Part shown: positions 4,532 to 5,050 of the stretch, piece by piece | How positions within the stretch are numbered: position 1 is the first letter of the stretch | How the letters are laid out: each line of letters opens with the position of its first letter | DNA from: Candidatus Iainarchaeum sp. | GTDB taxonomy: Archaea > Iainarchaeota > Iainarchaeia > Iainarchaeales > VGJJ01 | Direction: 5' to 3' | DNA: 64,000 nt | Assembly (NCBI GenBank): GCA_043803765.1 | Contig: JAZDJQ010000001.1 | Coordinates: 32,150 to 96,149, forward strand | The notes under the pieces: generated by a model | What the model was told of the DNA's origin: nothing | Databases searched by the model: none | The model's input: only the letters and a program-made list of their open reading frames with translations | Program-made: the position numbers and the translations under genes

Positions 4532-4629
4532 GGTAATTACCGTAATGATAGTAATTACTTAAAAACCTTATGGTAATTACTAGTAATTACCAAAAACCCA
4601 CAAAAAACAAAAACAATTGTGGTAATTAC
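4531..4629. repeat. Five GTAATTAC palindromes, including a perfect 22-bp palindrome at 4571-4592
   Basis: Copies start at 4533, 4551, 4573, 4583 and 4622; they flank the minus-strand TTTTAA box of the wHTH gene. Confidence 0.85.
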
Positions 4630-4864
4630 GAAAAAAGTTAATAAATTCGATTAAAAAAACAAAATGGGCGGAAAGAAAATGATTCCAACAACAAAACAAA
4701 AACAAAAAGAATCAAAAAACGTTAATTTTTTAATCAAAATCAACGAAAATTGTCGAAATGAGCCTTTGTTTTTCAGTAGTTGATAGAAAAAATGCACTTT
4801 TTATCAATTATGAGGGCACAAAAACAGTCCGAAAAAAGACTTTCGAAAAAAAAGCAATATCGAG

Positions 4865-4939
4865 TAGCGGGGGAAGGATTTGAACCTTCGATCTTCGGGT
4901 TATGAGCCCGACGGGCACTCCAGGCTGCCCCGCCCCGCT
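4865..4939 (-). tRNA. Initiator tRNA-Met (CAT)
   Basis: AGCGGGG acceptor stem with A1-U72; GGG/CCC anticodon stem; CTCATAA loop; GGTTCAAAT T-loop. Confidence 0.95.
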
Positions 4940-5050
4940 TTAACGTTATTTAGTTAGTGTCTAGTTGTTGCTTTTTGGTTGATTTCTTTTCTTTTATTGC
5001 TTTGCACCATTCTTATTAAATGCGTGCTGTTGTCCTAATTTGTGTGTTTT

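Follow-up and report, generated by a model that had tools for sequence, protein, structure and literature searches.

Archaeal replication origins are normally sought beside orc1/cdc6, the genes of their initiators, and leading strands are usually G+T-rich. In the fork traps RTP-Ter (B. subtilis) and Tus-Ter (E. coli), Ter sites overlap the promoter of the terminator gene itself (rtp-TerI, tus-TerB), and vertebrate mitochondrial DNA (mtDNA) combines strand-asymmetric replication with a strong G+T versus A+C asymmetry, most genes being sense on the A+C-rich strand. Consensus sequences of the origin recognition box (ORB) have been published for archaea (PMC4153887, Table 2) and for euryarchaea (PMC1868953), and Matsunaga et al. 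regard the 5' TTCC as a core motif (PMC1904270). For the complete genome of Ca. Forterrea (Diapherotrites), the origin was predicted by cumulative GC skew beside cdc6 (PMC5905446). A monotone cumulative GC skew is described for the Microgenomates bacterium Ch65, which belongs to the candidate phyla radiation (CPR), and its relatives (order UBA1400), and its authors suggested either a short distance between origin and terminus or unidirectional theta replication (PMC7143001); a 2026 survey of archaeal skews says no more on such patterns than that rolling-circle replication could yield continuous skew (PMC12999951). Our literature search found juxtaposed origin and terminus with near-unidirectional replication proposed for some CPR bacteria only, and no report from archaea or Iainarchaeota. 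Here, we describe a locus in a 64,000-nucleotide stretch of a Candidatus Iainarchaeum genome (the window; positions 32150-96149 of contig C1), at which the strand composition of the chromosome switches abruptly. Judged from its sequence, the locus is probably an Orc1/Cdc6-ORB-type chromosomal replication origin next to xerA, the gene of the chromosomal tyrosine recombinase.

The genome (G000) is a draft of 1,022,810 bp in 19 contigs. Its archaeal identity is shown by TFE, aTrm56 and two orc1/cdc6 genes, and the source names of homologues together with an Atlas cluster place it in Ca. Iainarchaeota/Diapherotrites (DPANN). For codon-position statistics we used our own longest-ORF caller and kept non-overlapping open reading frames (ORFs) of at least 90 aa, which gave 995 genes covering 89% of the genome. 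Keto skew is G+T-A-C, AT3 and GC3 stand for the AT and GC values at third codon positions, and the jump statistic J3 is the third-position keto skew of the 8 kb to the right minus that of the 8 kb to the left. The windowed skew counts exclude the 3.3-kb contig C3 and required at least 200-300 third positions per window. Among the relatives, G015 is a same-genus genome in a single contig of 1,048,949 bp, which must be circular because contig C10 of G000 bridges both of its ends. Both genomes are colinear for the most part, including 25 genes in C1:1.8-42.9 kb; in this synteny comparison and in the gene-orientation counts for G015, tblastn matches covering <60% of the query were discarded. G013 belongs to the same genus (220-kb contig), G027 to another family and G040 to a third one, and G033 is a closed genome of another family.

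The AT skew of the + strand changes from +0.15 to +0.24 at window positions 1-4000 to -0.19 at 4001-6000, and it stays between -0.05 and -0.50 up to base 64000 through genes of either orientation, just as the first-pass annotation of this DNA had claimed for a + strand that remains T-rich to the window end. J3 at the site is +0.72, the largest value among 2,936 positions in G000 (standard deviation (sd) 0.148, 4.8 sd; next 0.50), and the syntenic site of G015 also has the largest jump of its genome (+0.66 at 166,500; sd 0.115; next 0.33). The sign of the third-codon skew is identical in + and - genes. In the right arm, the strand component amounts to -0.54/-0.48 for AT3 and +0.34/+0.24 for GC3 with a coding component of at most 0.10, and the third-position keto skew is +0.21 to +0.63 in all 4-kb windows; the strand component of the left 20 kb is +0.28 for AT3 and +0.05 for GC3. 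Across the lineage, up to 80-87% of the third codon positions are G or T on one physical strand. Since the strand component dominates and the jump is the largest of the genome, the switch is real and linked to the strand, not to transcription. The left arm is short, as the skew is reversed for C1:17-37 kb only and is about zero for C1:0-17 kb.

The annotation had located the switch at the initiator tRNA gene (tRNA-iMet), in the interval 4532-5050. This is true for the whole sequence, as the cumulative keto curve of C1 reaches its minimum where tRNA-iMet ends on its 3' side (C1:37006, window 4857). However, the cumulative minimum of third codon positions lies at window 3556 and the change is graded, with a top-strand AT3 of +0.15 in XerA, +0.17 in the PRC-barrel gene (PRC), -0.07 in p204, -0.26 in the winged helix-turn-helix (wHTH) gene, -0.49 in TFE and -0.59 in aTrm56. 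The same graded order is repeated in four other genomes. The third-codon switch thus corresponds to the spacer between PRC and p204 (window ~3,400-3,560), ~1.1-1.5 kb to the left of 4532-5050. In relatives, the third-codon extremes are likewise found near ORB-R, the right one of two ORB-like elements described below: at 166,270/166,539 in G015, 74,146 in G027, 149,709 in G040 (AT3) and 102,236 in G013 (AT3). The distance to the right end of spacer 3375-3451, or of its equivalent, is about 150 bp at most in G000, G015 and G027, and G040 and G013 agree in AT3 alone; the extremes of these relatives thus fall in the PRC-p204 spacer or where p204 begins. In G033 the extreme (980,145) is at the opposite end of p204, ~600 bp from ORB-R. 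The wHTH gene had been credited with G/T-ending codons, but its coding strand has an excess of third-position A and G instead. The AT-rich tract pointed out in the same interval does exist: spacer 4532-4863 ties for the most AT-rich 300-bp window of G000, and its syntenic counterpart leads all non-coding 300-bp windows of G015 in A+T. Its A bias is probably due to terminator and promoter T-tracts on the minus strand, which codes both flanking genes.

Seen over the whole chromosome, the cumulative keto skew of G015 drops almost monotonically to -58,611. Of its 209 5-kb windows, 152 are negative, 39 near zero and 18 positive, and six of the positive ones are contiguous at 165-195 kb in a block that starts sharply at the syntenic cluster. 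Nearly all G000 contigs with positive skew map in reverse to G015 and all those with negative skew map forward, the 16-kb contig C15 (positive skew, yet forward) being the sole whole-contig exception; once the contigs are oriented by majority synteny to G015, 160 of 197 windows have the majority sign. Therefore, G000 shares the one-sign architecture of G015. In the contig order C16(rev)-C13-C1-C9(rev), the skew, +0.4 near orc1-1 on C13, falls off smoothly towards the site, reaches -0.26 directly to its left and then leaps to +0.6. We count this abrupt rise, together with the slow fall on the other side, in favour of an origin. The amplitude of the reversed domain is about half of the main one (AT3 +0.28 vs -0.54 in G000, -0.29 vs +0.41 in G015). 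The site does not split the chromosome into two replichores: the oppositely skewed arm measures just ~20-40 kb and the rest of the ~1 Mb circle has a single sign, a pattern that implies neighbouring origin and terminus and near-unidirectional replication.

The succession of main sign, site, ~30-40 kb of reversed sign and main sign is found again in G013 and G027. In G040, the third-position keto skew is +0.66 to +0.74 right of the site and about zero left of it, and G033 is nearly skewless throughout with a weak minimum at the cluster. Among 16 relatives, a change of the same polarity at the cluster is clear in four (G015, G013, G040, G027) and weaker in five (G035, G025, G033, G019, G018); three are not assessable, as their contig ends at the site. 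The gene cluster itself, xerA-PRC-p204-wHTH (opposite strand)-tRNA-iMet-TFE-aTrm56, retains its gene order and orientations in each of the 13 relatives searched, which span 25%-53% G+C. In this search for the six-gene cluster, the contig of G039 stops before xerA and xerA of G025 was matched in two pieces. The conserved cluster, together with the assignment of the recombinase as a XerA equivalog, rules out a recent island as well as a misjoin.

Some other regions deviate from the general skew pattern. A segment of ~15-17 kb outside the window (G000:C7:29000-46000) has both AT3 and GC3 reversed, with third-position keto skew down to -0.71; both edges are sharp (J3 -0.50 at 27,500 and +0.39 at 42,000) and few of its genes have counterparts in G015. 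In appearance, this is a genuine inversion or else native DNA that was transposed. Nearly skewless stretches (C12:100-173 kb, C14:4-32 kb and G015:340-440 kb) coincide with poor synteny between G000 and G015 and are probably variable or acquired DNA.

The third-codon switch coincides with a pair of inverted ORB-like elements flanking the PRC gene. The exact 12-mer GGAASTRTGGGG has three copies in G000, one of them at the site, and in G015 it occurs only twice, both times at the site, in inverted orientation, 620 bp apart and on either side of the PRC gene. With up to 2 mismatches, the left element (ORB-L) is found at the same place and on the same strand in 13 of 14 genomes holding that spacer, ORB-R in 14 of 15, and the inverted pair in 12 of the 14 genomes that hold both spacers, across families. 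The PRC-p204 spacer contains a block that is conserved in all 15 genomes. A 16-mer version with up to 1 mismatch detected 43 places in 29 of 41 relatives, compared with none for the backwards control, and the consensus of 27 copies has AGTGGAA, a short linker and GGGGT in common with the published ORB consensus sequences. ORB-L is not a ribosome-binding site, because there is no gene downstream on its strand. The elements are accompanied by AT-rich DNA, as spacer 2942-3044 has 71% A+T compared with 58% in the genome, and a further spacer of 332 bp with 73% A+T follows 1 kb to the right of the pair. The likely origin core comprises the inverted ORB-like pair and the AT-rich spacers at window ~2,890-3,480, outside 4532-5050. 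The oriC without adjacent orc1/cdc6 proposed by the first-pass annotation remains the best-supported reading, although the cis elements had been assigned wrongly.

Besides, the 23-bp palindrome TTATGT-N11-ACATAA has exactly two copies in the 1.02 Mb genome, both at this locus. The left copy was present in the four same-genus genomes examined and in no other family. With up to 1 mismatch, 11 of 15 genomes have the right copy, in every case 5' of the ORB-R core at a distance of 54-60 bp; of a 34-bp block at window 3396-3429, G013 has a match and G015 has none. Candidate functions are a XerA site or a regulatory site. The dif site of Thermococcales has 28 bp with 11-bp arms, a 6-bp spacer and a central TATAA-N6-TTATA (PMC4640148, Table 2). 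The palindromes share the 17-bp half-site period of dif, but their conserved bases are at the outer and not the inner ends, which departs from the published geometry.

In contrast to most known archaeal origins, no orc1/cdc6 gene is directly adjacent to the site, as was noticed at first inspection. The two copies of the genome are on C13 and C10, the nearest one ~76-80 kb and the other ~160 kb away; in G015 the distances are 78 kb and 160 kb on opposite sides. Neither gene is flanked by a spacer of at least 300 bp, no ORB-like 12-mer (up to 1 mismatch) lies within 12 kb of either, and neither coincides with a skew switch, so that we rejected an origin beside orc1-1 or orc1-2. An apparent skew minimum at C13:3260 is due to a 1,236-aa gene at the contig end without counterpart in G015 or G013. 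At C13:3903-11538, orc1-1 is ~5 kb from the gene of the PolD subunit DP1 (527-aa ORF), and the 1,151-aa ORF between them is taken, without a family search, as the large subunit DP2. This arrangement is similar to the oriC neighbourhood of Thermococcales, but here it comes without spacer or ORB-like motif. Two other candidates for origin DNA were discarded: the 985-bp "gap" C1:16,728-17,712, where the reversed domain has its far edge, resembles a gene that escaped the ORF caller, and C13 and C1 end in coding DNA that is paralogous. The coordinates of all features are compiled in Table 1.

Table 1. Features of the putative origin region and of the initiator genes (window positions unless a contig is given).
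Feature	Position	Strand	Remarks
Reversed-skew domain, proximal end	1-3400		AT3 +0.14 to +0.44 in both gene orientations; extends left to ~C1:17 kb, outside the window
xerA (chromosomal tyrosine recombinase)	2003-2887	+	NCBIfam NF040815 recomb_XerA_Arch equivalog, 272.6 bits vs cut-off 220
Palindrome TTATGT-N11-ACATAA, left copy	2888-2910		Directly after xerA stop codon
ORB-L, left ORB-like element	2920-2942	-	Core 2922-2933, 1 mismatch to GGAASTRTGGGG
PRC-barrel gene, 109 aa	3045-3374	+	Pfam PRC E 2.3e-6; 61-95% identity in 13 relatives; between both ORB-like elements
AT-rich spacer, candidate unwinding region	3375-3451		74% A+T
Palindrome TTATGT-N11-ACATAA, right copy	3407-3429		Exact; 54 bp before ORB-R core
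ORB-R, right ORB-like element	3451-3475	+	Core 3461-3472, exact match to GGAASTRTGGGG
p204, conserved Iainarchaeota-only protein	3482-4081	+	Function unassigned
Winged-helix DNA-binding protein (wHTH), 157 aa, lineage-specific	4058-4531	-	Weak Pfam PadR match, E 0.0012, below cut-off
AT-rich spacer	4532-4863		73% A+T; + strand 162 A vs 81 T
Five GTAATTAC palindromes	4533-4629		At 4533, 4551, 4573, 4583, 4622; over wHTH promoter and start codon
tRNA-Met (CAT), initiator type	4865-4939	-	Rfam RF00005 57.3 bits; ARAGORN 4864-4934
TFE-alpha	5051-5590	-	Pfam TFIIE_alpha E 1.1e-17; top-strand AT3 -0.49
Right arm	5051-64000		+ strand G+T-rich irrespective of gene orientation
aTrm56	5624-6139	-	Pfam Trm56 E 1.1e-40; top-strand AT3 -0.59
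orc1-1	C13:3903-5210		Beside PolD genes
orc1-2	C10:4226-5338

The GTAATTAC boxes had been regarded as cis elements of the origin. Given their place at the wHTH gene, they look like its operator, and the simplest reading is that the array is probably the operator of an autoregulated gene. The array spans 97 bp and holds five of the nine GTAATTAC copies in G000 and, in the same place, five of 15 in G015. In nine of nine aligned genomes of the genus the block is almost invariant, in contrast to the drifting remainder of the spacer; an inverted repeat at 4780-4807, also proposed as an origin element, is present in G000 but unconserved in this alignment. Outside the array, GTAATTAC is scarce in G000 (4 copies vs ~26 expected from base composition). 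Because the site cluster is unique in the genome, array and wHTH protein may in addition have a role in replication, either as an origin accessory or as a fork barrier. The wHTH protein has 87 homologues, from Diapherotrites wherever the source is named. The core of its AlphaFold model (residues 50-140) reaches a predicted local distance difference test (pLDDT) score of 81-95, and the top Foldseek matches are winged helices of the Fur/PerR/PadR type, all with E > 0.001. A profile search against the Protein Data Bank (PDB) gave one match with an E of 2 and no link to the RTP or Tus families. Taken together, a relationship to RTP, Tus, Rep or the winged-helix domain of Orc is unsupported by Pfam, PDB profile, AlphaFold and Foldseek.

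Regarding the other genes of the cluster, xerA matches Pfam Phage_integrase with an E of 2e-46, is syntenic in relatives and is the only copy of XerA length among three PF00589 matches in the genome. For p204, neither Pfam nor NCBIfam gave a family; its Atlas cluster has 561 members, 97% of them archaeal with Iainarchaeota as the commonest source, and the Atlas record begins at residue 6 of our ORF. The tRNA-iMet sequence is invariant in nine of nine aligned genomes, and the tRNA was the only match in an Rfam scan of window 1-9000. TFE-alpha and aTrm56 are the first genes of the strongly G+T-skewed arm. Many contigs of relatives stop 0.5-5 kb past TFE, as if assemblies were broken there by a hypervariable region. 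In G015, no syntenic counterpart exists for a 1,555-aa surface-type protein (window 11792-16459) and its neighbours (~8400-11800). At window 1402-1496, a block of 95 bp with 85-88% identity in G013 and G015 is intergenic according to the ORF caller and is probably a small gene. Further to the left and outside the window, where the reversed-skew domain has its far edge, a pilus-like gene cluster includes a gene of a type II/IV secretion ATPase (C1:12036-15071) that is split by an intein with a LAGLIDADG domain. C1:28778-28904 belongs to an intergenic repeat family of ~127 bp with 87-92% identity (others at C12:136824, C4:66233, C7:16396 and C18:82764), and the C1 copy had no Rfam match.

How might such an origin work? 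The change from A+C-rich to G+T-rich would be the polarity of an origin provided that the usual rule holds in this genus. We infer that the skew reports fork direction with this usual polarity, that Orc1 binds the ORB-like elements and that leftward forks are short-lived. Initiators encoded elsewhere would act in trans, Orc1 would bind the inverted pair and the adjacent AT-rich spacer would open. A rightward fork, running via p204, wHTH, tRNA-iMet and TFE, would then copy nearly the whole ~1 Mb circle, while the leftward fork would be delayed, blocked or abortive and would cover 0-40 (up to 80) kb before meeting the returning fork. A variable reach of leftward forks would reverse the skew at roughly half its amplitude and let it fade with distance, and with leftward forks this short and rightward forks of ~1 Mb, origin and termination zone would be juxtaposed. 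One physical strand would be the leading strand nearly everywhere, and xerA, perhaps together with its site, would be within this ori/ter zone. If origin and terminus are indeed juxtaposed, the presence of xerA at the site is compatible with an origin as well as with a terminus. In its widest form, the proposal is that a family-level DPANN lineage copies its ~1 Mb chromosome almost wholly one way from a single ORB-type origin by xerA, far from orc1/cdc6, with origin, termination and dimer resolution within ~30-40 kb; we put this forward tentatively, with a confidence slightly short of even.

Several points weigh against an origin of this kind. The motif is without the 5' TTCC half of the published consensus, and the loose literature pattern AGTGGAA-N3-6-GGGG is barely enriched (5-6 vs 2-3 in the control). 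ORB-R overlaps the likely ribosome-binding site of p204, for which its G-run may double, and a gene (PRC-barrel), not spacer alone, separates both elements. A second conserved ORB-like site at C9:5987-6002 (-), syntenic with G015:46592, has no skew switch, and four of the 16 cluster-bearing relatives (G028, G030, G036, G002) show no skew step; each of the four has at least one ORB-like copy. Nothing identified here limits leftward forks to 20-40 kb. In addition, the relatives compared are not independent of one another, and the gene calls come from a longest-ORF caller without a dedicated gene finder. As to the second site, a 429-aa ORF contains it, and it lies to the right of the origin candidate at a distance of ~100-120 kb. 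It may be an origin that is dormant, or a site at which Orc1 acts as a regulator. An ORB-like match away from the xerA cluster is found in most same-genus genomes; synteny with the C9 site was compared for G015 only.

Gene orientation also argues against an origin, and at the same time it backs the main rival explanation. As already cautioned in the first-pass annotation on account of the nearby xerA and of genes pointing at the site, the locus could be a polar replication terminus, a fork trap on which forks converge in a chromosome with an A+C-rich leading strand. The wHTH protein, bound to the GTAATTAC array, would then be a counterpart of RTP or Tus, and the Ter site next to its gene would also serve for its autoregulation. 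Dimers would be resolved at the terminus through xerA and a dif-like palindrome, and a diffuse origin would lie 20-80 kb to the left, towards orc1-1 and PolD. Over the whole genome of G015, 285 conserved genes are on the A+C-rich strand vs 205 on the other (61% by length), as are 29 of the 43 tRNAs (29 vs 14) and the genes of ribosomal protein L2 and RpoB, which are head-on under the origin model and co-directional, 100-120 kb from the presumed origin, under the terminus model; only the two rRNA genes are co-directional with replication from an origin at the site. Six of the seven local genes converge on the site, xerA and two genome-unique palindromes adjoin it, palindromic boxes form a cluster without equal in the genome over the promoter of a small wHTH gene, as in rtp-TerI and tus-TerB, and orc1-1 is located beside the PolD genes 76-80 kb to the left. 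However, the switch would have the polarity of a terminus only if the leading strand were A+C-rich, as gene orientation suggests, and this opposes the near-universal rule of a G-rich leading strand, which held in the genome report of Ca. Forterrea (PMC5905446). An origin at orc1-1 does not fit either, because the skew between orc1-1 and the reversed domain (C13, +0.14 to +0.41) has the main and not the reversed sign, and the far edge of the reversed domain yielded neither a spacer nor a repeat of origin type. Moreover, the third-codon switch is at the ORB-like pair, ~1 kb left of the GTAATTAC array, and the wHTH protein has no link to RTP or Tus in sequence or fold. The gene bias towards the A+C-rich strand could result from selection against C-to-T nonsense mutations on a deamination-prone strand, by analogy with vertebrate mtDNA. 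Weighing sequence elements and polarity above gene orientation, we prefer the origin and consider a terminus unlikely, even though it is a live alternative.

A compositional boundary that does not reflect the present direction of forks, i.e., an old inversion of ~20-40 kb that has one of its breakpoints in the cluster, or a border of native and acquired DNA due to a tRNA-integrated element, is in our opinion very improbable. It could account for the lower G+C of the left flank (0.33-0.39 vs 0.41-0.48) and for a tyrosine recombinase adjacent to a tRNA gene, and a true inverted segment does exist elsewhere in the genome (C7:29-46 kb). But the gene order and orientation at the junction are kept in all 13 relatives in spite of their range in G+C, C1:1.8-42.9 kb is colinear with G015, and the recombinase is the chromosomal XerA equivalog, which speaks against an integrated element (short att repeats were not specifically sought). 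The reversed domain recurs in the same position in genomes with saturated synonymous sites (protein identity 50-80%; GC3 0.38 vs 0.60), and therefore the skew must be maintained at present. A fossil inversion is also unlikely from the shape of the domain, which has one sharp and one gradual edge and in G000 is reversed in AT3 alone and not in GC3, unlike the segment on C7 with its two sharp edges. Finally, a chimeric join at the tRNA might be suspected in a 19-contig draft, as tRNA genes are common misjoin sites. The same junction is present, gene for gene, in every relative spanning it, including a single-contig genome and a 220-kb contig, and these independent assemblies leave practically no room for an artefact.

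If the locus is an origin, a concrete and testable candidate would be available for a phylum without a cultured model, conserved across many Iainarchaeota families and situated 76-80 kb from the nearest initiator gene. We regard the one-sign skew with its reversed domain of 20-40 kb as the more important point. If true, this would be a strand asymmetry otherwise known from mitochondria, and it may have driven genes onto the protected strand. As a practical consequence, skew-based assembly checks and peak-to-trough growth estimates, which assume equal replichores, would fail on these genomes.

Compared with known systems, the locus resembles archaeal Orc1/Cdc6-ORB origins (oriC1 of Pyrococcus, Sulfolobus and Haloferax, and the ORBs of Methanomassiliicoccales) in its inverted repeats with an AGTGGAA core and a G-string ending in T, in the adjacent AT-rich DNA, in a skew switch of origin polarity and in having one such site per genome. 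It differs from them by the lack of an adjacent orc1/cdc6, by ATTA in place of the 5' TTCC half, by a linker that is 2 nt shorter, by a pair that flanks a conserved gene and adjoins xerA, and by grossly unequal replichores. Within the published tables, the 27-copy consensus is closest to the Methanomassiliicoccales ORB variants starting with ATTAC (PMC4153887). Ca. Forterrea belongs to the same phylum-level lineage and its origin was likewise placed by skew, but the pattern shown there is the classical two-armed one, whereas here the skew has one sign and the origin is far from cdc6 (PMC5905446). With the RTP and Tus fork traps, the locus shares a small DNA-binding protein gene at a skew switch with presumed sites over its own promoter; no homology was detected, the polarity is wrong under the usual rule and the array is ~1 kb from the third-codon switch. 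Closer in chromosome-wide pattern is Ch65, where one skew sign also runs round a ~1 Mb circle, gene orientation offers no explanation and slightly more genes are on the C-rich strand. Ch65 is, however, a bacterium with DnaA-type initiation, GC and not AT skew is affected, and the sections of that report on skew describe no switch point, origin element or short reversed domain (PMC7143001). In contrast to vertebrate mtDNA, we are dealing with a 1 Mb cellular chromosome that has Orc1, MCM and PolD genes and no evidence for strand-displacement synthesis. Nevertheless, the likeness to mtDNA extends to the strength of the asymmetry, with third-position keto skew of up to 0.63 here and 0.74 in G040, to the position of most genes on the A+C-rich strand and to a tRNA gene near the switch.

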